Shown here: positions 4,660-64,000 of the stretch, piece by piece
Layout of the letters: every line of letters begins with the position of its first letter
Position numbering within the stretch: the stretch's first letter is position 1
Assembly (NCBI GenBank): GCA_964608765.1
Contig: CAZSPD010000004.1
Location: 658-64,657 of the forward strand
DNA length: 64,000 bases
Reading direction: 5' to 3'
DNA from: Candidatus Woesearchaeota archaeon
GTDB taxonomy: Archaea; Nanobdellota; Nanobdellia; Pacearchaeales; GW2011-AR1
Made by a program: the position numbers and the translations under genes
Notes under the pieces: generated by a model
Seen by the model: the letters and a program-made list of their open reading frames with translations, nothing else
The model's database searches: none
Told to the model about the DNA's origin: nothing

Positions 4660-7600
4660 ATGCAAAAAAAGGGTGAAATGTCAAGATTAACAATTAATCT
4701 TTTAATTGGATTTTTAATTTTGGCTTTAGCAGTTATTATTTTTATTATAGTTAGGGGTTATACTCAGGAAACTAAGCATGAGGTGCTTAGTGATGATGAT
4801 ATTGATTTGAAAATTTCACAAGTAAAGCAAATTGATGATAGTAATTTAGGTTTAACATTGAGGAGAAACTTTGGAGAAGGGAGTTTTAGTGGTTTAAGTT
4901 TTATAGTTTATGATGGTGTAAATCTTGAAATAATAAAATTAGATGCATTTATTGAAGAGAATGATTCTGAAGAATTATCACTTTATTTTAATCAGGTTAA
5001 TGCTTCGAGAATAAAAAGTATTTCTGTTTCTACAATTTATACTAATGAAGAAGGTTTGAAAGTTACTGGAGGTGTTAAAGATGAATACATTACACCTGAC
5101 ACTTGTTCAAATTACTGTCCTCCTAATGCACAGTGTGGAATTACTGGATGTGGATTATTTTGTGGGAGTGAAGATGGAAAATGTAAAAGCGGTTATTCGT
5201 GTGTGAATTATAAATGTGTTAAAGATAAATCATCTTCAGGAAGTGGAGATAGTGGTGGAGGTTCAACTACTCCTTGTACTGATACATGTAATTCACTAGG
5301 ATATAGGTGTGGAACTTATACAATTTGTGAAAAAAGTGTAAAATGTGGAGAGTGTGGTAATGGTTATACTTGTAATGATAAGGGAGTGTGTGTTGAAATA
5401 CCGATAAATTGTGAGGATAGTTGTTCTTCATTAGGTTATGAATGTGGATTCCATGATGTTTGTGGAATTTCAACTAATTGTAATGAGTGTTCAGTAGGAT
5501 ATGAATGTAATTCAACTGGTAAGTGCGTATGTAAATCTGAATCTAATAGTGAATTTTGTACAAGATTAGCAAGACAGTGTGGAAGTGTTACAGCTAATGA
5601 TAATTGTGGCACCTCAAGAACAGTAAATTGTGGAACATGTCAATCAGGTTATAATTGTGATAGTAGTGGGCTTTGTATAGCTGAACAGTGTGTTCCTGAA
5701 TCTAATAGTGCATTTTGTTTGAGATTAGGTAAAAATTGTGGAAGTGTTACAGCTTTGAATAATTGCGGTAATTCAAAAACAGTAAATTGCGGGTCTTGTT
5801 CTTCACCTCTAACTTGCGGGGGAGGTGGAACAGCAAATGTGTGTGGATGTACTGTTTCAAGTTATACTCCTGCATTAAATACATTCTGTGGTTCAAGAAG
5901 TGTTACAACAAATTGTGGAACAACAATTACTATGCCAGGAACACTAACATGTCAAACAGGATATTCTTGCGCAGCAAATGGGTCTTGTGTAAAAGATAGT
6001 GCTGATTGTATTGCTTCAACATCTTGTAGTTCTTTTGGAAAAAATTGTGGGACAATTTCAAATGGGTGTTCAGGAACATTAAATTGTGGAACATGTTCAA
6101 CAGGAAAAACTTGTTTTAATAATGTGTGTGTTAATAGTAATGAGGTAGGGGATTTAAATGTTCAACAGCAAAATTCAGATTGTGGGGATATTTTAGATTA
6201 TCAGTGTGGTATAAGAACAATATGTGATAAAAATGTTGATTTTGGAAATTGCCCTTCTGGATATATTTGTAATAATAATTTATGTATTGCATCTGATTCT
6301 AAGAGTTGTAATGGTGTTGTTTGTCCTTCTGGAGAGTATTGTTCTCATGGAGTGTGTTTGTTGAGTGTTTCAGGCAATACTTATTTTGTTGCAACTTGGG
6401 GTAAAGATAGTAATTCAGGAACATTTGAGCAACCTTTCTATAGTTGGCAGAAAGTAGTTAGTGTGTTAAAAGCAGGTGATATAGCTTACTTTAGAGGCGG
6501 AATTTGGCAACCTATAATACCTGAAGGAACTCATGGAAGTAATCTTGTTATGAGTATTTGGGGGCCTAGAGGATATAATAATGGTAAGAGTGGGACTGCT
6601 AGTAAGCCAATAAGATATTATAATTATCCTGGAGAAAGACCAATATATGATGGACAGTTTGTTGGAATTGATAGTGCAGGTTGGGGTGGAGGAATTAGTA
6701 TGGGAGATATACAGTATGTGTATCTTAGAGGTTTAACAGTAAGGAATGTGCATCAAAGTCCACCTAATCCTGCAAGAACAGGGAAACCTAATTCAGAAGT
6801 TAGTGGAATTAGTTGTGCTCAGTGTGCAAATATGATATATGAAAACCTTGTTGTACATGATATTGATGGAAGAGGGTTCCAACACTGGAGTGGAGCATGG
6901 GCAGAGTATGATGCCCAGTATGCTGTGAGTCTTGGATATGGCTATACAGCTCCTTATTATGAATCAGATAATACTGTTTGGATAAATTGTGATGCATATA
7001 ATCTGTATGATAGATATTCACTTGAACCTGGAAATGCTGCAGATGGATGGAAAGTTGAAACTTATTATGTTGGGAACTTTAATTGGATAAATTGTAGAGC
7101 ATTTAATTATTCTGATGATGGATTTGATCCTCATGGTTCAGGAAAAAGAGTGTTTGATGGGTGCTGGGCAATACCTAATACAAGGTATGATGAGATATCT
7201 AGCTCGTGGAATAATGAATTAAATGGATTTAAAATGACTGGTGTAATTCCAGAGACTGTTCCAAATTACAGAGTGGGTGGGGAAAATTTAGTTATTGTAA
7301 AGAATTCTATAGCTGCTGAGTGTGGATGGACTGGAATTTTGAATAATATTTTAGTCAATTATGTTGATCAGTGGCCAAATAATGGATTACTTTATAATAA
7401 TTTTGTATATAGAAGTGGAATAGGATATTCTGACTCTAATGCTTCTGTTTATTATAATAATATTGTTTATGATAGTCAGTTAAGAGATCCTACTGGGAAA
7501 AAATATGAGGTTTCATTGTATAATGCGTGGATTCAAGGAAGCCATAATACTTGGATATTTCATCCTTATTCAGGTGATTGGTGGTGGAATTATAATCCAA

Positions 7601-36498: not shown

Positions 36499-37740
36499 AT
36501 GGTAACTAAATATGATGTCTTTGAATTTGTTTATAAAAATCAAGTTCCTTTAAAGCCAATAGATGTAGTAAGAAATTTTCATAAGGATGAAAGAGAGTAT
36601 CATGCTATTTATAAGATGCTAAGAGAACTTCAAAAAGAAAAACTTTTGGAAAAAACAGATAATGGATTTCAGATTAAGTTAAGTGAAAAATCAGAGCTTC
36701 TTTATGAAATTATTAAATATTCTCTTAATAATAATCTAAATTACAATGAACTCTTAGATAGAAATTTCTCTGATTTTATAAGTATTGGGTTGCAAAAACA
36801 AGAATTAACTTCTTTGGATATAAAAATAAATCCTCGGACTATAAAAAAGTATATAGACATTTTATCTAAATATGGATTAACTCTTGTTTTATCTGAAAAA
36901 CCTCTTAGAATAAAAATATTTTACAATACTCTTATGAATAATTTGTTGATTTATTTTAATCATAGTTCTAAATTAATAAGTGAAGATAAGAAGCAATATA
37001 TTCAAGAAATAGAAAAAGAGCTTTTAAAATATAGAAAATTAAAAAGAAAGAATGAATTAGGATACAGAAAAATAATGGATGAATTTGAGATTCATTTTAT
37101 TCATCATAGTTTATCTCTGGAGGGAAATCCAATAACTCTTCCAGAGACTATAAAAATTTTAAAAGAAAATATAATCCCCTCTAATTTGAAGATAAATGAT
37201 GTAGAAGAAGTAAAAAATTATCAAAAAGCACTTATTCAGATGCTTAAAGATGCATCTGAAAGAAAACCATTAAGTTTAGCCAGTGTACTAAATTATCATA
37301 AGCAGGCAATGTTTCACCTTCAGAAACTTGCAGGAAATATACGGGATTTTGAAGTATTTATACAAGGAAATCCTGACTTTAAAATCGTAAAATCTAGAGA
37401 AATACAAGAAGAGCTTGGAAAATTATTTGAAAAATACAATGAATTTATTAAAAGAAAAAAAGTTCTATTGAAAGACATTTTCTCATTTGCAGTTTATTTT
37501 CATAATGAATTTCAACACATTCATCCATTTGCAGATGGAAATAGCAGGACAACAAGGTTAATTACTTTTCATCTTCTTCAGTCAATGGATATTCCAATTT
37601 TTGATATACCGCTTGGTTTATTGGATGAATATTTGAATTGCACAAAAGCATCAAAAAAAAGAGAAGATTCCAGACTTATTTTGACTTTACAAAAAATAAC
37701 TTTGTTTAATCTTAAGAAGATAAATGAAAAATTGAAATAA
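36499..37740 (+). CDS. Fic-domain protein with N-terminal wHTH
   Basis: HPFADGNSRTTR Fic motif; HHSLSLEGNPIT. Confidence 0.92.
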   Translation: MVTKYDVFEFVYKNQVPLKPIDVVRNFHKDEREYHAIYKMLRELQKEKLLEKTDNGFQIKLSEKSELLYEIIKYSLNNNLNYNELLDRNFSDFISIGLQKQELTSLDIKINPRTIKKYIDILSKYGLTLVLSEKPLRIKIFYNTLMNNLLIYFNHSSKLISEDKKQYIQEIEKELLKYRKLKRKNELGYRKIMDEFEIHFIHHSLSLEGNPITLPETIKILKENIIPSNLKINDVEEVKNYQKALIQMLKDASERKPLSLASVLNYHKQAMFHLQKLAGNIRDFEVFIQGNPDFKIVKSREIQEELGKLFEKYNEFIKRKKVLLKDIFSFAVYFHNEFQHIHPFADGNSRTTRLITFHLLQSMDIPIFDIPLGLLDEYLNCTKASKKREDSRLILTLQKITLFNLKKINEKLK

Positions 37741-37783
37741 AAATTATAAAACCACCGGAACAATTAGTCCAAAAAGTGTAAAG

Positions 37784-38350
37784 TTAAGATAAAACTTCTT
37801 CTATCTTAGAAATAAATTCATCTGCATTGCTTAAAGCTGTTTTAGCCATTTCTTTTGTAATAGCAGGAGTAGCATCATATTGAGCTGTTTCTCTGTTTGT
37901 TTTTGTTTGTATGAGTTTTGTTATCAATTGTTCGCTTATAAGATAAGCTTTTGCAAGTTTATGAATATCCTTTGCTTCTAAGTTCTTGTTTTTATTTTCA
38001 TGAACGTAATCATGCTCTAAGACCGCTATTGTGGCTGCATGGCTTTTTGACTTAAAGCCAAGTTTAGCAAGAGCAGATAAAGCAGAAGTATACATTGCAT
38101 AATAAGAAACAATAATAACCCAATCATGAGTCTCAAAGTCCTTGGCAAGATTTAGCATTCTCTTTAAGTCATCTTGTTCAGATATTTTGAATAACAAATT
38201 AGCAATGCTAAAGTTCTTTCTTGCCTTTGTTATAAATGGCTTTTCAAGTTTTTTATTCTCTTCATTTTTTAAAAGATGTTCTTTTTTTAGATATCCCTTA
38301 ATTTGGTTTTTTAGTATTGTTTTTCTGTCTTTCATACTATTAATCTCCAA
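37784..38350 (-). CDS. HEPN-domain protein (module 1)
   Basis: WVIIVSYYAMYTSA, FKSKSHAAT, NRETAQY; coupled to the upstream MNT. Confidence 0.85.
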   Translation of the reverse strand: MEINSMKDRKTILKNQIKGYLKKEHLLKNEENKKLEKPFITKARKNFSIANLLFKISEQDDLKRMLNLAKDFETHDWVIIVSYYAMYTSALSALAKLGFKSKSHAATIAVLEHDYVHENKNKNLEAKDIHKLAKAYLISEQLITKLIQTKTNRETAQYDATPAITKEMAKTALSNADEFISKIEEVLS

Positions 38351-38955
38351 AATAATTCATGCCCATATAAAGATATTCCTGATTCTTTTGACTCTTTTCC
38401 AACATTTAGCTCTTTTGATTTTAACATTTTTTTAAATTCCTCTATATTTGTTATTAATGGGCTTATTTGAATATTATGTGAGTATCGATAACTTGCACTC
38501 TCTCTTTCTATTGATTCTCTTAGGTTTTTATCCTTTAAATCATTCACTATGAACATTAAATCTATGTCTGATTGTTTATTTGCAGTTTCTTTAGCATAGC
38601 TTCCAAATAAAACAATAGAGAATATTTCAGAAATGTATTTTTCAGTTAACTTAGAAATTAAGTTTTCTATTATTGCTTTAAGCTTAGGATTCTTCTTATA
38701 AATTTCTTCTTTTTTCTTAATATCTGTTTCCTGAAGAAGATGCCTTGTTTTTGCATTCTCTAGGTTAAGTTTGCATTGCTTAGAGTTGCCTATTTTTAAC
38801 ACATTTATTATTTTTTCTTTCTCCATTACTGATATATGGATATAAGTAGGCCTATAACCTATCTTAAGTCTTCTAGATATTTCCATTATAGTTAATCCTG
38901 TGTCTATATTCTTTCTCATTAATTCTACAATCTTAAGTAATGTTTCTTGTCTCAT
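38332..38955 (-). CDS. wHTH-minimal nucleotidyltransferase (module 1)
   Basis: LFGSYAKETANKQSDIDL; N-terminal HTH. Confidence 0.9.
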   Translation of the reverse strand: MRQETLLKIVELMRKNIDTGLTIMEISRRLKIGYRPTYIHISVMEKEKIINVLKIGNSKQCKLNLENAKTRHLLQETDIKKKEEIYKKNPKLKAIIENLISKLTEKYISEIFSIVLFGSYAKETANKQSDIDLMFIVNDLKDKNLRESIERESASYRYSHNIQISPLITNIEEFKKMLKSKELNVGKESKESGISLYGHELFWRLIV

Positions 38956-51239: not shown

Positions 51240-51899
51240 ATGGAAAAAATAAAGAGAAAACAAGAAGAGGGATTTAGTGCAGTTTTTGGAGATGTTGAGA
51301 TTTCCCATCTAGAAGGAACAATTCTCGCTTCTTTTTTCCCTGAAGCAGAGGAGATGACAATAAAAGAGATTAAAGAGAGGGTGGATTATTCTTATGAGAG
51401 GGTTAATTCTGCACTTAAGTTTCTTACTGAAAAAAAGATAGTTATTGAAAAACAAAAGGGAAAAACCCTCATTTATTCTATTAATATTGAAAGTCCATAT
51501 TCTTATAGCTTAGGATTTAACAGATATATGCTTCAAAGAGAAATAGATTTTATCAAAAGAAATAAGCTAATATACACTGCAATTAAAGAATTGAGTATGC
51601 ATCCATACTCTTGGATGATTGTTTTGTTTGGGAGCTATTCTAAAAATACAGAATCTAAACAGAGTGATGTAGATTTAATCTGTATTTCCAGCAATAAAAA
51701 AGAGACAGAGGATTTTATTCATTCATTAAAACGTAAATATGGGATTAATTTTGCTCCTGTAATACTTCCTTTGCATGAGTTTCCTAATATAAAAAAAGAT
51801 AACCCCGAATTATGGGATGATTTAAAGAAGTATGCAATAATCTTTAAGGGAGGAGATTACTTCTATTCTTGGATGTATAAAGATGAAAATAAGTATTAA
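51240..51899 (+). CDS. wHTH-minimal nucleotidyltransferase (module 2)
   Basis: LFGSYSKNTESKQSDVDL. Confidence 0.9.
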   Translation: MEKIKRKQEEGFSAVFGDVEISHLEGTILASFFPEAEEMTIKEIKERVDYSYERVNSALKFLTEKKIVIEKQKGKTLIYSINIESPYSYSLGFNRYMLQREIDFIKRNKLIYTAIKELSMHPYSWMIVLFGSYSKNTESKQSDVDLICISSNKKETEDFIHSLKRKYGINFAPVILPLHEFPNIKKDNPELWDDLKKYAIIFKGGDYFYSWMYKDENKY

Positions 51900-52398
51900 T
51901 CAATTAATAAAAAAAGGATATCTTTCAAAGGATGATTCTTCCAGAAGTCTCTCTAAAAGATATCTTCAAAAAGCGAGAAATAATTTAATCACCATGAGTT
52001 TGCTTTCTGAGATAAATGCAAGTAAAAAGGTAAGGGATTTGCTAAAAATACCTTCAGATTATAATTCGGATGAGTGGATTGTCATAACAGGATATTATGC
52101 AATGTATTCTTCAGCATTGGCTTTGATTTCTAAGATTGGATATAAAAGCAAGAATCACACTGCTACAATACTTTTGTTAGAAGAATTTTTTATTAAAAAG
52201 AAATTGATGTCTGCAGAAGACTTATCTTTACTAAAGAACGCAATCTTTCAGAAATTTGAAATAGAAAAATTATCTGAAGCAAGACATAAACGTGAGGTAG
52301 CACAATACAGTGTGACTAAGCAAACAACAAAAGAGATTGCTCAAAATGTGATAGAAGATGCTTATAATTTTGTAAATAAAGTGGAATTGATAATTTAG
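51883..52398 (+). CDS. HEPN-domain protein (module 2)
   Basis: WIVITGYYAMYSSA, YKSKNHTAT, KREVAQY. Confidence 0.85.
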   Translation: MKISINQLIKKGYLSKDDSSRSLSKRYLQKARNNLITMSLLSEINASKKVRDLLKIPSDYNSDEWIVITGYYAMYSSALALISKIGYKSKNHTATILLLEEFFIKKKLMSAEDLSLLKNAIFQKFEIEKLSEARHKREVAQYSVTKQTTKEIAQNVIEDAYNFVNKVELII

Positions 52399-54512: not shown

Positions 54513-54746
54513 AGGAATTTTAAAGGGAAAATATAGATTAAATTAGATAATATCTTCTTCCTTTAGAAAAATTAAATTTATGTTTTATCTTAAAATAATG
54601 TAAGGTTATCTTAGTTAGATAACAGGATTTTCTTCTCACACCTTTTTAAAATATTCCTTAAAATGTTGCATCCAGCACTTATTACTATACGACACCATCG
54701 TAAAGTTTATTGTTCATAAAAACATTTAAATAGTATTGGTTCATAA

Positions 54747-55316
54747 ATGATACATATGGTTCAAAATAGAGACGATATAGAATCTGAAATAATATTGGTT
54801 TTGCTTAAGAATGAGACTCATCTTAGAGAGATAGCAAGGATTCTTGGAGAGTCGCATTCTACGCTATTAAGGAAGATTAAGGATTTGTTAAAAAATAATA
54901 TTTTAGATTATAAAAAACAGGGAAAGAATAAAGTTTTTTTTATTAGGAACAATCTAAAGGCCAGAAATTATGTTTATTCTGCAGAAATCTACAAGTTTAA
55001 CCAACTTCTAAGGAAACATCCAGAATTATCAATAATATTAGGAGATATAAAAAAGAATTTTCCAAGTGGAATGATTCTTCTATTTGGAAGTTATGCTAAG
55101 GGAATTGCAAGAACTGACAGTGATATAGATATTTATCTTGAGACAGAAGATAACAAACTTAAAAATAAAATAAGCGAATTAAATTCAAAATTAAGTATTA
55201 AGATAGGAGCTTTTGAAACAAAATCCTTATTAATTAAAGAAATTATAAAGAATCATATAATAGTAAGAGGTATAGAAGAGTTTTATGAAAGAACTGACTT
55301 TTTTAAGGAAACTTAG
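54747..55316 (+). CDS. wHTH-minimal nucleotidyltransferase (module 3)
   Basis: HLREIARILGESHST, LFGSYAKGIARTDSDIDI; probable start 54756. Confidence 0.9.
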   Translation: MIHMVQNRDDIESEIILVLLKNETHLREIARILGESHSTLLRKIKDLLKNNILDYKKQGKNKVFFIRNNLKARNYVYSAEIYKFNQLLRKHPELSIILGDIKKNFPSGMILLFGSYAKGIARTDSDIDIYLETEDNKLKNKISELNSKLSIKIGAFETKSLLIKEIIKNHIIVRGIEEFYERTDFFKET

Positions 55317-55776
55317 GAAAGATAAAATTCTTCAGTTAGTTGAACCTTCTGAAGAAATGAAATCTTCTTATCTAATTAAAGCAGAAAACTGCCTTAAATC
55401 TGCCAAAATACTTCATCAGAATCAGATTTATGAAAACTCTACATCAGAAGCCTATTACTCTATGTATAATTCACTCTTATCTTTATTATTCAATGCTGGA
55501 ATTAAATCTGAAAATCATTCTGCTTCTATTCTGCTTTTGGATATATTATTTAAAAAGAAAGAGATGGCAAAAACCCTCTTTTGGGCTAAAGGAGAAAGAA
55601 TAGATAAACAATATTATATAGAAACTCAGCAAATTGTAAAAGTAACAAATGAATCTTGCAATGATATGATATTGAAAGCAGAGGAATTTTTAATAAAGAT
55701 GAAATTATTAATATCTGAGATAAGCAACGAGAGTATTAGTTCTGTTAGAAAAGAATTTATAGACTTATTTGGATAA
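55285..55776 (+). CDS. HEPN-domain protein (module 3)
   Basis: EAYYSMYNSL, IKSENHSAS, ERIDKQYY. Confidence 0.85.
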   Translation: MKELTFLRKLRKDKILQLVEPSEEMKSSYLIKAENCLKSAKILHQNQIYENSTSEAYYSMYNSLLSLLFNAGIKSENHSASILLLDILFKKKEMAKTLFWAKGERIDKQYYIETQQIVKVTNESCNDMILKAEEFLIKMKLLISEISNESISSVRKEFIDLFG

Positions 55777-55832
55777 TTTAAGTGTAACTATTGCTCTATT
55801 ACAATATTTGATTTAGTATGATAACTTCCTTC

Positions 55833-55988
55833 TCACACTTTTTTAAAATACTCTTTAAAATGTTTCATCCAGCACTTCTTGTGGAAGATGAAAAACTCCT
55901 TTATTTTTTGTCCTCTTTTACCTATTAGCATTACATATTCGTCTTTTGATTCATCGATTCGATTGGAGCATTTTGAGCAGGTTTTCAT
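55833..55988 (-). CDS. Small Zn-finger-like protein
   Basis: MKTCSKCSNRI...FHKKCW (CxxC...HxxC); ATG at 55988 preferred over the longer ORF call. Confidence 0.65.
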   Translation of the reverse strand: MKTCSKCSNRIDESKDEYVMLIGKRGQKIKEFFIFHKKCWMKHFKEYFKKV

Positions 55989-56052
55989 TTTGGTTAATAT
56001 ATGTATGTAGGTAACTATATTACTATTTAAATATGTGTATACTGATACATAT

Positions 56053-56265
56053 ATGGCTAGTAAACCCATTAACAGAATAATGGAGGAAATCTTTGACTTA
56101 TTAAAAAAAGAAAAAGAATTATCTACAAGGCAATTATCAGTTAATATTGGCTCACAATGGATAACTATTGAAAAAGCTCTTGAATCTATGAAAAAATTAG
56201 AAGTTGTTAAGGAAAGAATTGATAAATTTGATAAAAGAAATACTCGGCTTTGGAGCCTAAAATGA
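56053..56265 (+). CDS. Small wHTH transcriptional regulator
   Basis: LSTRQLSVNIGSQWITIEKALESM, RLWSL; divergent from the Zn-finger gene. Confidence 0.7.
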   Translation: MASKPINRIMEEIFDLLKKEKELSTRQLSVNIGSQWITIEKALESMKKLEVVKERIDKFDKRNTRLWSLK

Positions 56266-56957
56266 AATTTAAGTTGAGGAGACTTGCTAGGGAGTTTAAT
56301 TTGAGATTCAGTGAAACATGGTTTAAACTTATTTGGATATCTAAGAGAGAGAATATACTTCTTGAGTATATGTGGATGTGTCCAGATCCAATTTACATTA
56401 AATATGGTAAAACTTCTTATGAAAGAGCTAAGAACATTGAGTGTTTTATTGATTCAGATGAGTTTAAAGAGTGCTTAGAGAGATTTGGAGGGCAGGTTAT
56501 TGAGAGGAATACTTTCAAAAAGTATTTTCCTGGATGGATAAATGAAATAGAAAATTTGGAGATTCGGAGAGAGCTACATACTATTTATAAGAAGATATCG
56601 GGTGCAATGGGGATGGGTCCTAGAATTGCTGTCTTGACAAAATCTTCTAAAAAAAGTGAGATAGAGAAAATTAAGTCATTTGTTTTATTTCATGAATTCA
56701 TTCATATATTAGTTAATGAAAATAAACTTGATTTTAAAGATTGGAGATACAATGAAGGTTTGGTTACTTATTTACAAGAATTTTCTAATAAAAAGATTAA
56801 TAAGTTGGATGAGGAAGCTAGGAAATCTACTTACAATTTCCAAAAACAGTATTATGTTTATGCTATTAAGTTTAGAGAATTGCTTAAAGGAGATAATGTT
56901 CCAGAAAAAAGAAAACAAAAAATAATCGAACTAAAAAACTCTTTAGGAAGGGGATAA
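56250..56957 (+). CDS. Putative gluzincin-type metallopeptidase
   Basis: FHEFIH followed by YNEGLVTY. Confidence 0.6.
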   Translation: MEPKMKFKLRRLAREFNLRFSETWFKLIWISKRENILLEYMWMCPDPIYIKYGKTSYERAKNIECFIDSDEFKECLERFGGQVIERNTFKKYFPGWINEIENLEIRRELHTIYKKISGAMGMGPRIAVLTKSSKKSEIEKIKSFVLFHEFIHILVNENKLDFKDWRYNEGLVTYLQEFSNKKINKLDEEARKSTYNFQKQYYVYAIKFRELLKGDNVPEKRKQKIIELKNSLGRG

Positions 56958-56976
56958 GAAGAGAAAATAAAAATCT

Positions 56977-57303
56977 TTAGTTTGATCTAACTATCTTTCT
57001 AAGAATATCTCCCAATAATAATCCTATTGAGGCTATTGTTATAGCAGGAAATATAATTAAGATGAGATAGATAACAGTTATAGCAACTACCACCTGACTT
57101 GATGTAAATAGCAACATAAATTCTTCTTTGAAAAGGTAAATTACTACTAGTCCAAGAATACCTAAAATTAAGATAATCCATTCAAGCATATCTCTTACTT
57201 TTTCTAATTTTTTTCTCTTTTCAGATTCTTTTATAAGGAAATACCCAACTACAATAAAAGATATTAAAATCGTTAATATAACTACCCACATTAAATTAAC
57301 CAT
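56977..57303 (-). CDS. Small three-TM membrane protein
   Basis: Hydrophobic 108-aa ORF with its own promoter. Confidence 0.65.
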   Translation of the reverse strand: MVNLMWVVILTILISFIVVGYFLIKESEKRKKLEKVRDMLEWIILILGILGLVVIYLFKEEFMLLFTSSQVVVAITVIYLILIIFPAITIASIGLLLGDILRKIVRSN

Positions 57304-57353
57304 AATAATTACAACATCTTCAACTATTTACGCTTTTCTGTACACTCTATTCT

Positions 57354-57788
57354 TTAATTATTCTTTTGTGCATCTTTCTTCAATTTAAAAAGAAATAGGC
57401 TTCCAAGAATAAATCCTAAAATATCTCCAAAAATAAACTTTATCCACTCTGTACTTTGAATACCTTCTTTTACACAATAGTAAGAAGCATCAGAAATAAT
57501 AAAGGCAATCAAAGAAAGGAAATATGGAAAATTCCAACTTTTATTATCTCTTTTTCTTCCAAGAATAGATTCTACTCCAAAACTAAATATAAGTAATAAT
57601 GTAGGAAGGCCAAATCCCCAAAAGAAATGTTCTAGGAAATTCCTTCCAAAGAAATCATATAATATTACCTCCTTATTAGAGAAGTTCATAAGGAATCTAT
57701 TCATAGATAGGAAAATAACACCGATAAGAACAATTAAGAAAATCATCTTGTATTCTTTTTTTATCATGGCTCTTCTTAATCCTTTCAA
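57354..57788 (-). CDS. Small polytopic membrane protein
   Basis: Hydrophobic; HFFWGF; probable start at MIKKEYK (57767). Confidence 0.65.
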   Translation of the reverse strand: MKGLRRAMIKKEYKMIFLIVLIGVIFLSMNRFLMNFSNKEVILYDFFGRNFLEHFFWGFGLPTLLLIFSFGVESILGRKRDNKSWNFPYFLSLIAFIISDASYYCVKEGIQSTEWIKFIFGDILGFILGSLFLFKLKKDAQKNN

Positions 57789-57802
57789 CTATTTACATAT
57801 TT

Positions 57803-58099
57803 TTATTTTGAATTTAAGACCATTAAAACAGATAGTGTAAGCAATATGAACACTACCCAAAGAAAATTTATAATTGATTTTTTGACTTCACCCCTATTTC
57901 TCAGTTTAATATATACCCCCAATGTGAATATAAGATAACCTAAACAAGCTGTTAAAAATATTGAGTTAAATATTGTTTCTCCAAGTGAATTTAGAAATTT
58001 AATTATTGCATAAGAAAATAAAATCCCCCCTATTATCTCAAATAATCTTCCAAAAGAATATGTATCCTCTTTATTCCCCGGATAAATTCTTTTATTCAT
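57803..58099 (-). CDS. Small three-TM membrane protein
   Basis: Hydrophobic 98-aa ORF. Confidence 0.65.
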   Translation of the reverse strand: MNKRIYPGNKEDTYSFGRLFEIIGGILFSYAIIKFLNSLGETIFNSIFLTACLGYLIFTLGVYIKLRNRGEVKKSIINFLWVVFILLTLSVLMVLNSK

Positions 58100-58165
58100 A
58101 AAAAATAAAGACTTTTATTATTTATAATATTATGTGGGATGAATAGCATATTACTTATTTTTCAT

Positions 58166-58897
58166 TTATTTTAGGAGGTTTCCACTTAATGAAAAAAGAA
58201 CAAACGTAACAAGTACTATGATTAAAATGATAGACGCGGCCAATACTAACCTTTCTTTTTTCGATTCTTTCTCTGGAATAATAGAGATTAGGTTTAGCAG
58301 AGACACGATTAGAGTAAGGATGGCAACCCATAACATAATATTTGAGGAAATGCTCATTTTTCTTGTAGAGCTTTCTATGGATCCCAACATGGTTGCCGAT
58401 CCTTTTATTTGATTAGATTGTTCTTTAAATAGGCTATATTGCCATTGTGGCATAGCGGAGAAGTAATATCTGAAGCAATTTCCATGGTAATAATACCCGG
58501 ATGGGCTATAGAATTTGATAAAATTTGTTTCGTAGTTAGAAGAACATATTTCTAGCTTGTAATCTGATGTGGTTTCAAAGTTCCAGACATAGAAATCCTT
58601 TTTTTCAGTGATATTTTTATAGGGATAAAATTCATAATAAGAGTAAGGTTGAATTTCAACAAATTTCGTTAATGTAGGATAATCTATTCCTGGATGATTT
58701 AAATTCGTTACAACAATGCTTATATTCCCTTTATACATTTCAGAATCGTTATTATAAATAGTTATATTGTAAATGAAAATATCCCCTACTACATTATATT
58801 CTGAGCTTATTGGGCCTTTAGAAATTATCTCAATGTCTAAGATAAGAGTGGATACTTTTGCAGAAACACTGCAAATTAGTATTATTACAAATAACAA
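58166..58897 (-). CDS. Secreted/membrane protein; 5' end out of frame at an A9 tract
   Basis: The ATGs at 58941/58938 are one frame off from the signal peptide KRATLFIALLFVIILICSVSA; two C-terminal TMs. Confidence 0.65.
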   Translation of the reverse strand: MLFVIILICSVSAKVSTLILDIEIISKGPISSEYNVVGDIFIYNITIYNNDSEMYKGNISIVVTNLNHPGIDYPTLTKFVEIQPYSYYEFYPYKNITEKKDFYVWNFETTSDYKLEICSSNYETNFIKFYSPSGYYYHGNCFRYYFSAMPQWQYSLFKEQSNQIKGSATMLGSIESSTRKMSISSNIMLWVAILTLIVSLLNLISIIPEKESKKERLVLAASIILIIVLVTFVLFSLSGNLLK

Positions 58898-59094
58898 TGC
58901 GATAAATAAAGTTGCTCTTTTTTTTTCAGATTAAACATCATAATCACAATATCTCTAACTATTTACGTCTTTCTGTTCCGCTTTCTCTTCAACTTATGTA
59001 GAGTATAATTATTTTTTCCACCGATATCTATTTTTTAAAAATATACAATATTATTTAAATAGAAATACCTTCTCAACAGGAAGTAGATACTAAA

Positions 59095-59457
59095 ATGACT
59101 TTAGAAAATTTATATCCAAAAGAATGGGATGAGATTACAAATAAAAAAATCCCGAAAGAAGAAATAAATATTTATTTCTTAAAATTTGTAGCAAAGCTAG
59201 TAAAAGAAGAAAAAAGAAACAAAAAAACAGATACGAGTGTTGGAGATGGTTGGAGTATGGTTATTAATATGAATAAAAACTATTATAAATTAGCTCCAGA
59301 AATTTATGGTTTCCTTTTTAGATTAGGAGACTACGATATGCAAGACAATCTAGGACACGGAACTAGTGAATATGGTGATATGCTTTACACTTTGCAAGAA
59401 GTTGAACCTGAGTTAATAAAAATTGCAGGCAAATTTGGATTAAATTTAGATTTGTAA
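59095..59457 (+). CDS. Hypothetical protein
   Basis: 120-aa ORF with upstream TATA and a downstream hairpin plus T-tract. Confidence 0.65.
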   Translation: MTLENLYPKEWDEITNKKIPKEEINIYFLKFVAKLVKEEKRNKKTDTSVGDGWSMVINMNKNYYKLAPEIYGFLFRLGDYDMQDNLGHGTSEYGDMLYTLQEVEPELIKIAGKFGLNLDL

Positions 59458-59464
59458 TTTTACT

Positions 59465-59494
59465 GGCTTCTGGATAATACTGGAAGCCTTTTTT
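59465..59494 (+). terminator. Hairpin plus T-tract
   Basis: GGCTTC...GAAGCC followed by TTTTTT, 8 nt after the 59457 stop. Confidence 0.55.
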
Positions 59495-59505
59495 ATTTTA
59501 CTTCT

Positions 59506-59660
59506 TTACTTCTTCATCCGCTTATACAGTAATCCCCAGAACAATACAAAATATATAAGGAAGAACAACATTCCTGAATAACTATGGTAAAGCCCAAGTG
59601 CTATATTGGGGGAGATGTATGCTCCTACAAGCATTAGTGTGAAAACTCTTAGTATATTAA
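59506..59660 (-). pseudogene. Orphan 3' end of the archaeosortase gene
   Basis: 59558-59660 is 102/103 identical to 61219-61321 and continues in frame as IYFVLFWGLLYKRMKK*. Confidence 0.9.
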
Positions 59661-59750
59661 TTACTTTTTCTAAGAAATTTACTTAGATAACAGAATTCTA
59701 CTTCTTCATTAAAACTTCAATCTTTTTTCAAGAATATATAAACAAGTATT

Positions 59751-59800
59751 TAACTAAAGTTAAACTATAATTAAACTTTAGTATAACTAAAGTTAAACTA
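59751..59800. promoter_or_regulatory. Duplicated 17-bp box upstream of the AAA ATPase
   Basis: taactaaagttaaacta at 59751 and 59784, with an inverted partial copy (aactttagt) between them. Confidence 0.6.
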
Positions 59801-59848
59801 CACATTAATAATAGTAAGGTTTATAAATAAGCTCTATCTTTATTAAGT

Positions 59849-61042
59849 ATGAATGTAGCGACAAAATATACTGAGAGAAATATAAAAGAAAGATTTGATA
59901 AGTTAATTAAGCCCTATCAGGTCATTGCAATAGTTGGGGCAAGACAAGCTGGCAAAACAACATTCCTAAAAGAACAAGCAAAGAGATTCAAGAGTAATTA
60001 TCTTCTATTTGATGATCCGGATATAAGGGAATTATTTGATGAAGATATTAAAAAATTTGAAATTCAAAATATAGAAGGGAATGAACTTTCTGTATTGGAT
60101 GAAGTTCAGTATTGTAAAGATGCAGGAAGGAAACTGAAATATCTTGCAGATAATAGCAGAAAGTTATGGGTAACCTCTTCTTCTGAAATTTTGCTAAGTA
60201 AAGAGGTATTATCTTATCTTGTGGGAAGGGTTTCAATAATAAAACTTTACCCATTTTCAATAGAAGAATTTCTCGATTTAAAAAACTTAAAAGAATTTTC
60301 TAAAATTACATTAAAAAGAGCATTATGGGAGCATATGACATTTGGAGGATACCCTAAAATAAATCTCACAGGAGATATAGAATTGAAAAAAACTATGCTT
60401 AAAGATTTATATGAAACAATGATTCTCAAGGATATTGCAAGAACTTTTTCAATAGATGATTTATCCTCTTTAGAAAAATGTTTAAGGTATCTAGCAATTA
60501 ATACAGGAAATTTGATTTCCTACGATTCACTTTCTAAAGATGTGAAGATTTCATTTCAGACTCTGAAAAAATATTTAGAATCAATGGAAAAAAGTTATCT
60601 ATTATATTCAGTTCAGCCATTTTTTAAAAATAAGCTTAAGGAGATAATTAAACAGCCTAAAATCTATTTTATTGATACTGGATTGAGAAATTTTATAGCA
60701 AAATCTTTTAATGATGAACCAGAGGGTAATTTGTTTGAAAATTATATATTCACAGAACTATTGAAAATGGGCTTCTCGCCAAAGTATTGGAGAACAAAGA
60801 CAAAGATGGAAATTGACTTTGTAATAGAAAAAGAATCAAATATAATACCTATAGAGGTTAAAATCAATGCAAAATCAGAGAAAGTTGAGAGGAATATTAG
60901 AGCATTTATAGAGGAATATAAACCAAAAACTGCAATTATTGTTTCTTATGAAGGAGAGAAATCAGAGATAGAAGTCGATGGTTGCAAAGTTGTATTTACA
61001 GATTTAATTGGTATGAAAAAAATTTTATCTAAATTCACCTAA
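59849..61042 (+). CDS. AAA_14-family ATPase with DUF4143-like C-terminal domain
   Basis: GARQAGKTT, LDEVQY, GRVSII, FGGYP, KIYFIDTGL, EIDFVIE...PIEVK. Confidence 0.92.
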   Translation: MNVATKYTERNIKERFDKLIKPYQVIAIVGARQAGKTTFLKEQAKRFKSNYLLFDDPDIRELFDEDIKKFEIQNIEGNELSVLDEVQYCKDAGRKLKYLADNSRKLWVTSSSEILLSKEVLSYLVGRVSIIKLYPFSIEEFLDLKNLKEFSKITLKRALWEHMTFGGYPKINLTGDIELKKTMLKDLYETMILKDIARTFSIDDLSSLEKCLRYLAINTGNLISYDSLSKDVKISFQTLKKYLESMEKSYLLYSVQPFFKNKLKEIIKQPKIYFIDTGLRNFIAKSFNDEPEGNLFENYIFTELLKMGFSPKYWRTKTKMEIDFVIEKESNIIPIEVKINAKSEKVERNIRAFIEEYKPKTAIIVSYEGEKSEIEVDGCKVVFTDLIGMKKILSKFT

Positions 61043-61071
61043 AATTTGATTTCAATTAGATAACTATTATC

Positions 61072-61180
61072 GTTTCATCCACTAAACTTCATCCTTGAAG
61101 TTTTGGTACTCAGTGTTTCATCCACTAAACTTCATCCTTGAAGTTTTGGTACTCAGTGTTTCATCCATTAAACTTCATCC
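61072..61180. repeat. 43-bp tandem repeat, 2.5 copies, containing an 8-bp-stem hairpin
   Basis: gtttcatccactaaacttcatccttgaagttttggtactcagt at 61072 and 61115, partial at 61158; AAACTTCA-TCCT-TGAAGTTT. Confidence 0.92.
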
Positions 61181-62108
61181 ATTTGTAGAGTAGACCCCAG
61201 AAGAGGATGAAGTATATTAGGAAGAACAACATTCCTGAATAACTATGGTAAAGCCCAAGTGCTATATTAGGGGAGATGTATGCTCCTACAAGCATTAGTG
61301 TGAAAACTCTTAGTATATTAAATGCAAATGCTCCTAGAATTGCAGGTATGAACAATATAGCTGCTTTCTTTTTGTTTATTTTATTCCAGTCTAAAAATAC
61401 TATGAAAAGATATAATGCAGTGAAGATAAATATACTGTATATTCCACTGCAAGCTTCTGCAATTATAACAGAGAATCCATTAACAGTTATTCCATCTGTT
61501 CCAAAGATTATAACATCTACCCCAATTATTTTTAATAAGAAAGTAGTTGATTTCATAACACCTAAACTTAGATAAGTCCATAAACTCCAGACAAGATTCA
61601 TGAATGAGTAAGTTATTATTGCAAATATTAAAAAGTAGAATAATTCTTTCTTAAATTTTTTAATAAAGTTATTTGTGAGATTTATTCCAAATACTCCCCA
61701 TGCAAGGCAGAAAAATACAGAGAGTGCAAGAAGGTGAAACCAGATTATATTGAAGAGTGTTGGGTTGAGAGTATTTATGTTGTTGCTTACTAAATAAAAA
61801 GCACCTAATAGAACACATGAGATTCCAATTAGTAAATAGTCTTTTTTCTCTCTTTTGAATTTTCCTAATTCACTTATTCTTTTTCTATAAAGAAGAATAA
61901 ACCCTACTATTGAGAAAAGAATTATGTATCCTGCTCTTCCGTAAATTTCAATTTTCCATTTAGTTAACAAATTATTAGAAAATACACTTATACCTACAAT
62001 AAAAGAAAATACGATAAATAAAATAATAAAGATACCTGTTTTCCATAAGAACTGCTTAAGTCCTGGATTTAACTTAGGTTTGGCTTGGGTTTTTCCCTTA
62101 GTTTTCAT
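61161..62108 (-). CDS. Archaeosortase/exosortase family protein
   Basis: Polytopic; IIAEACSGIYS (Cys), NILRV (Arg), LYH (His). Confidence 0.88.
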   Translation of the reverse strand: MKTKGKTQAKPKLNPGLKQFLWKTGIFIILFIVFSFIVGISVFSNNLLTKWKIEIYGRAGYIILFSIVGFILLYRKRISELGKFKREKKDYLLIGISCVLLGAFYLVSNNINTLNPTLFNIIWFHLLALSVFFCLAWGVFGINLTNNFIKKFKKELFYFLIFAIITYSFMNLVWSLWTYLSLGVMKSTTFLLKIIGVDVIIFGTDGITVNGFSVIIAEACSGIYSIFIFTALYLFIVFLDWNKINKKKAAILFIPAILGAFAFNILRVFTLMLVGAYISPNIALGLYHSYSGMLFFLIYFILFWGLLYKWMKFNG

Positions 62109-62169
62109 GTATTTTTAGTGGAGATTATTGTTTATATTATTTGCCTGTGTGGTTAATATTGCTTACTTT

Positions 62170-62442
62170 TCACTTATACCCTTCAGGTTTTATTAGTCCA
62201 TTGTTTTTCAGTGCTTTTTGAACATGCTTTGTGTTCCATCCATTAATTTCAAGCTTTGTTCTAATCTGTGTGTAATTCATTCCTGATTCTTTTGCATTTT
62301 TTACCCATTCATTTAATCTAGGCATTATTAGTTCTTCTTTTTCTTTGTTTTTCTTGGATTTGTGTACAAGAAAGATAATTAATCCTATTGAGATTATTCC
62401 TAATACTAATAATGAAATTATAATTAACAATCTATTTGCCAT
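62170..62442 (-). CDS. Single-TM protein with a small cytoplasmic helical domain
   Basis: TM followed by LNEWVKNAKESGMNYTQIRTKLEINGW. Confidence 0.7.
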   Translation of the reverse strand: MANRLLIIISLLVLGIISIGLIIFLVHKSKKNKEKEELIMPRLNEWVKNAKESGMNYTQIRTKLEINGWNTKHVQKALKNNGLIKPEGYK

Positions 62443-62915: not shown

Positions 62916-64000
62916 ATGGAAAAGAGGAAGTTGATGTTATTATCTTCTGTACTTTCTGTTATTTTAATTTTAATGATTGTCACACTTGTTTCTAGTGGCT
63001 TAATTTATACTGGAAAAGCAATACAAAAACCATGCACGTGTGCATCTTATGGATATAAATGTGGATATCAAACTATTTGTGGAAAAACTGAGAACTGTGG
63101 AACTTGTTCTTCAGGATATTCTTGTGCAGCAAATGGAACGTGTATAAAACTCTGTTCACCTGAGACAAATAATCAATTTTGTTCAAGATTAGGTAAGAAT
63201 TGTGGAAGTGTTACAGGAGTAGATAATTGTGGTAGTTCAAGAACAACTACTTGTGGTTCATGTGCTTCAAATCAAATGTGTACTAATGGACTTTGCACTC
63301 AAAATTGTACACCTGAATCTAATACTCAATTTTGTTCAAGATTAGGTAAGAATTGTGGAAGTGTTACAGGAGTAGATAATTGTGGTAGTTCAAGAACAAC
63401 TACTTGTGGTTCATGTGCTTCAAATCAAATGTGTACTAATGGACTTTGCACTCAAAATTGTACACCTGAATCTAATACTCAATTTTGTTCAAGATTAGGT
63501 AAGAATTGTGGAAGTGTTACAGGATATAATAATTGTGGAAAACTAATTACAACTGATTGCGGTGTGTGTAAAGGAGGAAGTGTGTGTCAGGATGGAAAGT
63601 GTACTAATTGCTCAGCTACATGTGCTTCACTAGGATTCCAGTGTGGGGTTTACAATATTTGTAATAAAACACTTAATTGTGGAGCTTGTCCTTCAGGATA
63701 TACTTGTAATTCTGGAAATGGTACATGTGTAAAATCAGTGTGTATTCCAGGAAATTGTAGTTCACTAGGTAAAAATTGTGGAACAGTTTCAGATGGATGT
63801 GGAAAAATAATAAATTGTGGAACATGTATTTTACCTGCAACATGTGGGGGAAGTGGTGTATCTAATGTGTGTGGATGTACTGCTGAGACAAATATTCAAT
63901 TTTGTTCAAGATTAGGTAAGAATTGTGGAAGTGTTACAGCATATAATAATTGTGGTACATTAAGAACAATTAATTGTGGAGTGTGTTTAAATGGATATAC
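62916..64000 (+). CDS. Cys-rich repeat surface protein (3' partial; not in the ORF track)
   Basis: ATG at 62916, MEKRKLMLLSSVLSVILILMIVTLVSSGLIYTGKAI, open to the window end; FCSRLGKNCGSVT modules as in 2434..7845. Confidence 0.88.
   Translation, partial: MEKRKLMLLSSVLSVILILMIVTLVSSGLIYTGKAIQKPCTCASYGYKCGYQTICGKTENCGTCSSGYSCAANGTCIKLCSPETNNQFCSRLGKNCGSVTGVDNCGSSRTTTCGSCASNQMCTNGLCTQNCTPESNTQFCSRLGKNCGSVTGVDNCGSSRTTTCGSCASNQMCTNGLCTQNCTPESNTQFCSRLGKNCGSVTGYNNCGKLITTDCGVCKGGSVCQDGKCTNCSATCASLGFQCGVYNICNKTLNCGACPSGYTCNSGNGTCVKSVCIPGNCSSLGKNCGTVSDGCGKIINCGTCILPATCGGSGVSNVCGCTAETNIQFCSRLGKNCGSVTAYNNCGTLRTINCGVCLNGY
63174..63524. repeat. Exact 153-bp (51-codon) intragenic tandem repeat, 2.3 copies
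   Basis: caattttgttcaagattaggtaagaattgtgg starts at 63174, 63327 and 63480. Confidence 0.92.

Follow-up and report, generated by a model that had tools for sequence, protein, structure and literature searches.

An ATPase cassette between an intact sortase gene and relics of its 3′ end points to a probable recurrent insertion site in DPANN archaea

How can a gene be inserted at the end of another one without destroying it, and which of the resulting gene ends is then the native one? These questions are raised by a 64,000-nt stretch of a Candidatus Woesearchaeota archaeon genome (contig CAZSPD010000004.1 of assembly GCA_964608765.1, positions 658 to 64,657; hereafter the window), in which the 3′ end of an exosortase/archaeosortase-family gene is found twice, once attached to the intact gene and once as an orphan copy beyond a convergent AAA_14/DUF4143 ATPase gene. 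An earlier annotation made from the letters alone (the sequence-only reading) had proposed that a circular element integrated in Campbell fashion, supplied a substitute gene end and displaced the native one. This interpretation is partly supported. Taking the anatomy of the locus, the comparison with relatives and the recurrence in other loci into consideration, we favour on balance a different view, in which the region behind the sortase stop codon of DPANN archaea is a recurrent, duplicative and integrase-less insertion site for single defence or toxin genes.

A repeat search of the window revealed a two-copy direct repeat, 59512-59660 and 61173-61321, of 149 nt with 91% identity and a spacing of 1661 nt. 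Pairwise alignment resolved it into a 103-nt core, 59558-59660 and 61219-61321, with a single mismatch (G at 59608, A at 61269), and a diverged tail; at 59660/61321 identity is lost abruptly. The core encodes residues 264-297 of the sortase, including R267 and H288. The attached copy closes the open reading frame (ORF) 61161-62108 on the minus strand with ...IYFILFWGLLYKWMKFNG*, the orphan copy the ORF 59506-59634 on the same strand with ...IYFVLFWGLLYKRMKK* (the asterisk denotes the stop). In total the orphan measures 155 nt, that is a 34-codon core, a 16-codon tail and the stop codon, and no sortase fragments beyond those described here were found in the window. The attached and orphan tails differ at 13 of 46 nt, 11 of these differences being synonymous and two changing an amino acid. 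When 13 substitutions were placed at random, none of 200,000 simulations was as conservative as the differences observed, and the unequal distribution between tail (13/46) and core (1/103) gave a Fisher p of 6.6e-7. Because the differences are confined to the tail and, with few exceptions, synonymous, the repeat is neither a chance repeat nor a uniformly decaying duplicate; a plain tandem duplication followed by neutral decay was ruled out on the same grounds. The orphan tail appears to have evolved inside a working sortase gene. Its 46-mer, TATATATTTTGTATTGTTCTGGGGATTACTGTATAAGCGGATGAAG, is about equidistant from every sampled sortase tail. The one-mismatch core and the near-identical tail peptides written in mostly synonymous DNA, both pointed out in the sequence-only reading, are thus present as described.

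The archaeosortase identity proposed for the gene was confirmed by matches to PF09721 (E 2e-23, 83 bits) and to the TIGR04178 signature (54 bits, cutoff 23), and its 315-aa frame is intact, as had been stated. The models of named subfamilies (ArtC, XrtA, XrtV and others) all scored far under their cutoffs, ArtC for example at 37 bits against 100. C220, R267 and H288 are invariant across 34 sortase homologues. Almost all of the 114 homologues collected are metagenomic; those few with a name belong to Nanoarchaeota, Pacearchaeota and 'archaeon GW2011_AR13', all of them DPANN. The consensus end of the family is ...WMKK*. In the protein cluster of the nearest relative the members are tailed KK* or FNG* only, and a protein search for a full-length sortase with a KRMKK tail gave one weak candidate. 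Exact look-ups found neither the window's sortase nor the orphan ORF on record; the closest relative, P0001, shares 95% amino acid identity with the sortase.

P0001 is encoded on a 9.9-kb contig, L001 (L numbers designate the loci used for comparison), and two further L001-like contigs, L113 and L114, were included; all three, the closest relatives with 92% nucleotide identity, are without the ATPase. L001 is 92% identical to the window at the nucleotide level in the sortase gene and 95% in the convergent 120-aa gene, and has a 97-aa ORF in the place of the ATPase. Compared with an L001-like site, the window has an additional 1661-nt segment with GGATGAAG at either boundary and lacks the 97-aa ORF. 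The tail DNA of L001 shows 4 differences from the attached tail and 12 from the orphan tail. L113 and L114 carry the same tail as L001; in all three an attached-type tail is joined to the D-type flank that follows the orphan in the window, and L098, the next relative, has the run TTC ATC CTC TTC TGG GGT in common with the attached tail. The word AGAAGTAAAATAAA of the D flank also occurs after the sortase stop in L001. By position, then, the orphan would be the native end, whereas by descent it would be the attached tail. The codon usage from which a foreign origin of the attached tail had been argued proved to be that of the sortase gene itself, with a share of C-ending NNY codons of 0.44 in the gene and 0.54 in its last 116 codons (core included); the ATPase gene has 0.11 and a set of 45 other ORFs 0.24. 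In codon style the attached tail conforms to the gene that carries it. Most likely, to judge from these comparisons, the gene kept its own tail, and a foreign attached tail is unlikely. ATPase-free relatives with the tail of the intact gene had been named beforehand as the finding that would speak against an imported end. Such relatives exist as far as the tail is concerned, but L001, L113 and L114 end in KK* instead of FNG*.

The anatomy of the site, summarized in Table 1, accounts for this difference. The segment 61048-61172 has its homologues in native 3′ flanks of sortase genes, with two units in L093 and one in L091 (0/500 shuffles), and its distal part, 61048-61071, aligns with the L091 flank with a score of 75 (0/500 shuffles). 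The 43-nt repeats are therefore sortase flank and not cargo; the same homology ruled out a CRISPR-like array. Each unit restates 'W M K H stop' and adds 28 nt that hold the hairpin. The FNG* end arises where the TGGATGAAG of the gene joins the GGATGAAGTTTA(A/G)TGGATGAAAC junction of the last partial unit. As the repeats supplying FNG* are native flank and are also found in other genomes, at most the last one to three residues were changed. Instead of a replaced C-terminus there is at most a change from ...WMKK* to ...WMKFNG*, the joint lying within the GGATGAAG module, which is reiterated.

Beyond the ATPase gene, the 40-nt mini remnant is homologous to the sequence directly after the sortase stop of L098 (score 51, 0/500 shuffles), and 59677-59730 corresponds to the native sortase flank of that locus. 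The exact 15-mer AATTCTGTTATCTAA was found only in L093, L098 and the window within about 700 kb of fetched loci, a fourth match, L111, being a Logan contig of the window stretch itself. Only the longer alignments are significant: TTAGATAAC alone gave 3 matches against 1.4 expected, and the direct similarity of 59661-59760 to 61043-61172 was reached by 108/500 shuffles. TTAGATAA and TTATCTAA are reverse complements, which brought an archaeal Xer/dif site into consideration as a speculative candidate. Copies of the flank motif at 59683 and 61056 lie one on each side of the ATPase gene, and the right edge of the ATPase cassette falls 5 nt past the ATPase stop. Three sortase-end modules thus stand in tandem at the site, which holds the gene, the 40-nt remnant and the 155-nt orphan, and reads in gene orientation: sortase, 43-nt units, TTATCTAA motif, convergent ATPase with its operator, mini end with TTATCTAA, 22-nt filler, orphan core and tail, native flank. 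That the last is native downstream DNA is marked by the hairpin at 59465-59488, 59340-59495 being about 99% identical to L001. In many relatives (L001, L090, L098, L091 and L083/L094) the stop codon is directly followed by a second miniature end, and two L001-like Logan contigs end exactly at the stop codon, that is at a graph branch. From these sequences, the extreme 3′ end of the sortase gene appears to be a recombination hot spot.

Table 1. Features of the sortase/ATPase site in window coordinates; sequences are written in gene orientation where indicated
Feature	Position	Strand	Remarks
Hairpin GGCTTCTGG...CTGGAAGCC	59465-59488		After the convergent 120-aa gene (59095-59457); fold z = -4.3
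Orphan ending and native-type 3′ flank 'D'	59489-59511	-	Gene orientation ...GGATGAAG AAG TAA AGAAGTAAAATAAAAAAGG; last codon and stop of orphan
Orphan tail T′	59512-59557	-	Encodes IYFVLFWGLLYKRMK; 46-nt micro-patch, 28% diverged from attached tail
Orphan core C′	59558-59660	-	Copy of sortase codons 264-297; 102/103 match to resident core
Filler, 22 nt	59661-59682		Between orphan core and second flank motif; no homologue found
Mini sortase-end remnant, 40 nt	59683-59722	-	Gene orientation GATTGAAGTTTTA ATGAAGAAGTAG AATTCTGTTATCTAA; pseudo 'MKK*', then flank motif
ATPase operator/promoter region	59748-59805	+	Palindrome ACTAAAGTTAAACTA/TAATTAAACTTTAGT and third half-site
AAA_14 + DUF4143 ATPase / PD-(D/E)XK nuclease, 397 aa, intact	59849-61042	+	PADLOC PDC-S01 match
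Distal end of resident sortase 3′ flank	61048-61071	-	GATTTCAATTAGATAAC...; carries TTATCTAA motif
43-nt module, 2.5 copies	61072-61200	-	Gene orientation TGGATGAAACACTGAGTACCAAAACTTCAAGGATGAAGTTTAG; hairpin z = -4
Exosortase/archaeosortase-family gene, 315 aa, intact	61161-62108	-	Attached tail T, 61173-61218; resident core C, 61219-61321

The cargo is a single AAA_14/DUF4143 ATPase gene with a repeated operator, in agreement with the sequence-only reading. Its Pfam domains AAA_14 (E 4e-29) and DUF4143 (E 1e-39) were accompanied by a match to the PADLOC profile PDC-S01 (E 9.6e-80 over residues 9-366), and within 59661-61160 it is the sole ORF with a family match. According to a 2026 survey (PMC12988326), PDC-S01 is an ATPase fused to a PD-(D/E)XK nuclease, abundant in Archaea and a candidate single-gene defence system, most PDCs still awaiting validation; it also reports DPANN to be enriched in AbiE, SoFic and PDCs, single-gene systems among them. 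The profile match makes the ATPase a candidate defence gene with a putative antiviral role. Homologues with 60-89% identity are spread across DPANN, and identical copies of the same gene were present in two other sequencing runs. No relatives were found in IMG/VR, which speaks against viral carriage, and there was no match among PHROGs or PDB sequences. The half-site ACTAAAGTTAAACTA occurs three times within 59753-59800, the operator region folds with z = -3.5, and many loci have the operator conserved in front of their ATPase homologue. Only operator and ORF (about 59748-61046) are shared with the other ATPase loci, conservation ending left of about 59748 and right of the stop codon. The transferable unit therefore measures about 1.3 kb. 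The 1.66-kb cassette first proposed had included the 43-nt repeats and the rest of 61048-61172, which are sortase flank. Operator and ORF would together form a self-regulated cassette.

The topology recalls element e14 and phage 21 at the icd gene of Escherichia coli, where the insert is likewise flanked on either side by a copy of the gene's 3′ end, the gene remains intact, the copies differ mostly synonymously and recombination between them would restore a single gene (PMC13626634). Transferred to the window, a circle carrying core, attached tail, 43-nt units and ATPase would have recombined within the core and displaced a native tail T′ downstream. The order of parts is indeed that of icd/e14/icdC, in which the attached end is phage-borne and the pseudogene native (PMC13626634), and the Campbell-type topology described in the sequence-only reading, with direct repeats of the gene's 3′ end bracketing the insert, is present. 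In addition, the orphan adjoins native flank about 99% L001-like and has the consensus KK* end, a canonical end is likewise found on the orphan of a second case (L093, see below), and recombination confined to the core would preserve an identical core beside a synonymously diverged tail. The three ATPase-free relatives, however, have the attached-type tail together with the D flank, so that the insert would have had to be lost via an 8-nt microhomology and not via the 103-nt core. Codon usage does not bear the model out, other genomes have the 43-nt units as native flank, and T′ would be left as an unexplained 46-nt, 28%-diverged native patch between DNA that is 99% and 93% L001-like. There are also differences in kind: e14 has 15 kb and its own integrase, against 1.3-1.7 kb and no recombinase found here, and its attached end is element-borne and its orphan native, whereas the relatives point to a native attached tail in the window. 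We regard an e14-like history as unlikely.

In the reading that we favour, a module of about 1.3 kb, consisting of the palindromic operator and the PDC-S01-type ATPase-nuclease, would have been placed between the intact sortase and two sortase-end relics, the 40-nt 'MKK* + AATTCTGTTATCTAA' remnant and the 155-nt orphan, while the sortase kept its own reiterated 43-nt flank. The insertion would have been duplicative, copying the 3′ end of its target like a single-crossover (Campbell-type) event. Since the module has no recombinase of its own, either host homologous recombination via the core of about 100 nt or a trans-acting recombinase at the GGATGAAG/TTATCTAA motifs may have been at work. The resident gene would have kept its vertically inherited tail, its last residues changing because the joint falls in the GGATGAAG word of the flank unit. 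The orphan would be a non-functional relic, the identity of its core being due to a recent event or to gene conversion, and T′ may have come from another sortase allele that was functional. The T′ patch measures at most 52 nt and lies, 28% diverged, between L001-like DNA (99%) and a core that is 93% like L001, and the orphan core has all 7 of the resident core's differences from L001.

Several points weigh against this reading. The orphan tail has the canonical KK* end and runs on into native downstream DNA, including the terminator and the AGAAGTAAAATAAA flank. Its core is 102/103 identical although the tail is diverged, which would call for an extra gene conversion if the orphan came with the insert, and no donor for T′ was found. 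A recombinase and an autonomous parent element were both looked for in vain, the linkage across the core comes from one assembly, and the defence role of the ATPase is only a candidate one. Every history considered needs one gene conversion or one micro-patch.

The favoured reading gains from recurrence. In L093, a contig of a Woesearchaeota metagenome-assembled genome (MAG), a sortase gene (3139-4098; 62% amino acid identity) is followed by two 42-nt units, a convergent 395-aa AAA_14/DUF4143 gene that is about 30% identical to the ATPase of the window, an operator of its own with ACTTTACGATGGTGTCGTATA twice, AATTCTGTTATCTAA and an orphan tail. This orphan has 45 nt, is 89% identical to the attached tail, carries TAG in place of TGG and ends GLCYKWMKK*, the repeat spacing being 1540. 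With another ATPase and another sortase, L093 is an independent second case of the window's architecture. AAA_14/DUF4143 genes lie downstream of the sortase in the window and in L093, L094/L083, L106 and L110. The slot behind the sortase is taken by Fic in L098 and L108, by MNT in L090 and by the 97-aa ORF in L001; L103, L105 and L100 have flippase or glycosyltransferase genes, probably the conserved neighbours. Away from the sortase, the ATPase was bracketed by direct repeats of at least 40 bp in 6 of 45 non-redundant loci, compared with none of 49 control positions taken from these loci (p = 0.01). Among them, 67 nt (98.5%) of the 3′ end of a convergent gene are duplicated in L047, 140 nt covering a flippase 5′ end and its promoter in L002/L003, and 187 nt in L033.

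The same loci bear on a further alternative, in which the orphan is the last remnant of a tandem sortase paralogue that lost its 5′ part and whose core was kept identical by gene conversion, the ATPase merely lying in between. The MAG of L093, CAYPLY01, does have two sortase paralogues, though on the separate contigs L093 and L094; T′ is about as far from all sampled tails as a paralogue's would be, and gene conversion is needed anyway unless the duplication is very recent. Yet the two orphans, of 155 nt in the window and 45 nt in L093, consist of the extreme 3′ end only, and each comes after the same AATTCTGTTATCTAA motif; the window yielded no further sortase fragment, and none of the sampled loci has tandem sortase genes. 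We consider a paralogue remnant quite improbable.

L051 shows, as a side observation, a miniature of the window pattern at another host gene: the last 10 codons of an AspRS-like gene (QLKEANIKLD) at 3867-3896 and 5176-5205 are restated, with synonymous differences, after the stop of a 62%-identical ATPase. In the Logan contigs L084, L085 and L086, from three runs, each exactly 1570 nt long, an 84%-identical ATPase lies between identical ends with AGATATGTTTTA-like sequence, which suggests another repeat-bounded cassette where assemblies break. Several unrelated contigs with ATPase homologues of about 62% identity (L032, L041, L042, L048 and L024) contain a 22-nt perfect hairpin, TCTAATCAAGGTTTTGATTAGA, at a distance from the ATPase gene of about 125 nt on the upstream side and about 12 nt on the downstream side; this hairpin may mark a cassette boundary or act as a terminator.

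The absence of an integrase from the element, noted in the sequence-only reading, was confirmed: no recombinase family was detected inside the 1.66 kb or in the 50 ORFs scanned out of the 59 in the window with a length of 100 aa or more. XerA was not found in the window either, nor were tRNA genes, as candidate att sites. An autonomous element with an integrase at the same att site was found in none of 21 sortase loci, 80 ATPase loci and viral contigs, in a search that was not exhaustive. No inverted repeats at the boundaries and no transposase were found, so that the locus does not qualify as a transposon or insertion sequence; the length of the duplication, moreover, varies from 45 to 187 nt between cases, unlike the fixed-length target duplication of a transposon. 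No credible known RNA family was detected in 58900-62300. Among mobile elements, cis-mobilizable elements (CIMEs) are similar in that a small cargo without its own recombinase lies between attL/attR-like direct repeats of the target (definition in PMC6323972). They are, however, bacterial and defined against a known integrative and conjugative element at the same att site, whereas no parent element is known here and the repeats of the window-type cases differ in length (45, 67, 140, 149 and 187 nt). PDC-S01 shares profile and AAA_14 + DUF4143 architecture with the cargo of the window, and the available part of the survey makes no mention of a preferred insertion site or of flanking duplications (PMC12988326). 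Defence and toxin hot spots and integron-like arrays have in common with the window a conserved anchor gene, a variable slot of single genes (here ATPase-nuclease, Fic and MNT/HEPN) and a recurring boundary motif. Unlike in integrons, no integron integrase or attC was identified here, the cassettes have their own operators, and the boundary motif mimics the stop region of the anchor. In the literature found, there is no description of an integrase-less cassette of 1.3-1.7 kb, of boundaries that imitate a stop region, or of an ATPase-nuclease family whose unrelated members recur within the same few nucleotides of a sortase gene.

Could the integrated form be a product of assembly? From run SRR8925753, three independent Logan contigs (k=31) match 55095-59587, 59631-61101 and 63202-61292 with 100% identity, and the junctions of flank with T′ and core, of core with 59661 and of core with the sortase body are therefore real. 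All three contigs stop exactly 30 nt inside the core, however, so that their four flanks can be paired either way and fit alike the integrated form and an empty site (T′-core-sortase) accompanied by a 1661-nt circle or variant, from which an assembler mis-threading the 103-nt repeat would have produced the arrangement as drawn. Against this, the 73.9-kb NCBI contig was assembled straight through the repeat, a 103-nt core can be spanned by 150-nt reads, the MAG of L093, from another study, has the same integrated architecture, and a 1.66-kb circle with one ATPase gene would be without a replication function. Considering the NCBI contig and the layout of L093, an artefact or a free circle is very improbable.

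DPANN archaea have tiny genomes with few CRISPR or restriction systems and appear to rely on compact single-gene defences. Taken together, the window, L093 and the surplus of duplications around related ATPase genes suggest a simple route by which such genes may move, duplicative and integrase-less, via the 3′ end of a conserved membrane-protein gene that is spared in the process. They also hold a warning for the method, as codon style and an identical core beside a synonymous tail can mimic a replacement of the e14 type, until relatives reverse the likely polarity. A bolder extension, which we judge unlikely, would make the sortase stop region (TGGATGAAG...AATTCTGTTATCTAA) a dedicated landing pad for integrase-less, self-regulated defence or toxin cassettes (PDC-S01, Fic, MNT/HEPN) whose boundaries mimic the sortase end. 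Each event would then restate the gene end, explaining the 42/43-nt units and the orphan tails, and the whole would amount, in a DPANN clade whose MAGs bear the labels Woesearchaeota, Pacearchaeota and Nanoarchaeota, to a new gene-capture system in which a trans-acting recombinase or the nuclease of the cassette itself does the work.

Some boundary sequences were also met elsewhere. Within the window, at 54615-54710 upstream of the MNT-HEPN pair 54747-55776, the boundary motif recurs with one mismatch as AATCCTGTTATCTAA, with GTGAGAAGAA before it, and about 60 nt away lies the palindrome ACTTTACGATGGTGTCGTATAG, identical to the ATPase operator of L093 in another genome. Boundary and operator modules thus seem to be common to different cargo genes. 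GC-rich GGGCGGGTGGGAATAAG is found in the sortase-Fic spacer of L098 (700-735) and in the ATPase-Fic spacer of L082 (1545-1570), and palindromes GTGGGCACA...TGTGCCCAC flank the Fic genes of L098, L082 and L093; the GC-rich CCCACCC motif of other cassette edges is absent near the cassette of the window.

The remainder of the window resembles ordinary chromosome, with ArgRS, a class I W/Y tRNA synthetase, pilus genes and glycosyltransferases. Within 25 kb of the sortase, in the stretches 36499-38955, 51240-52398 and 54747-55776, one Fic gene and three MNT/HEPN nucleotidyltransferase pairs mark a region rich in genes of the toxin/defence type. In L001 a 1.4-kb Fic gene insertion (1559-2949), missing at 62165-62168 of the window, lies directly upstream of the sortase, which thus has variable DNA on either side. 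Finally, 63036-63990, close by on the upstream side of the sortase region, contains tandem 153-nt repeats in 3-4 copies with 69-100% identity, together with related families of 27-111 nt. They encode Cys-rich modules (...CG..C...), are common to L001 and may belong to surface proteins or sortase substrates.

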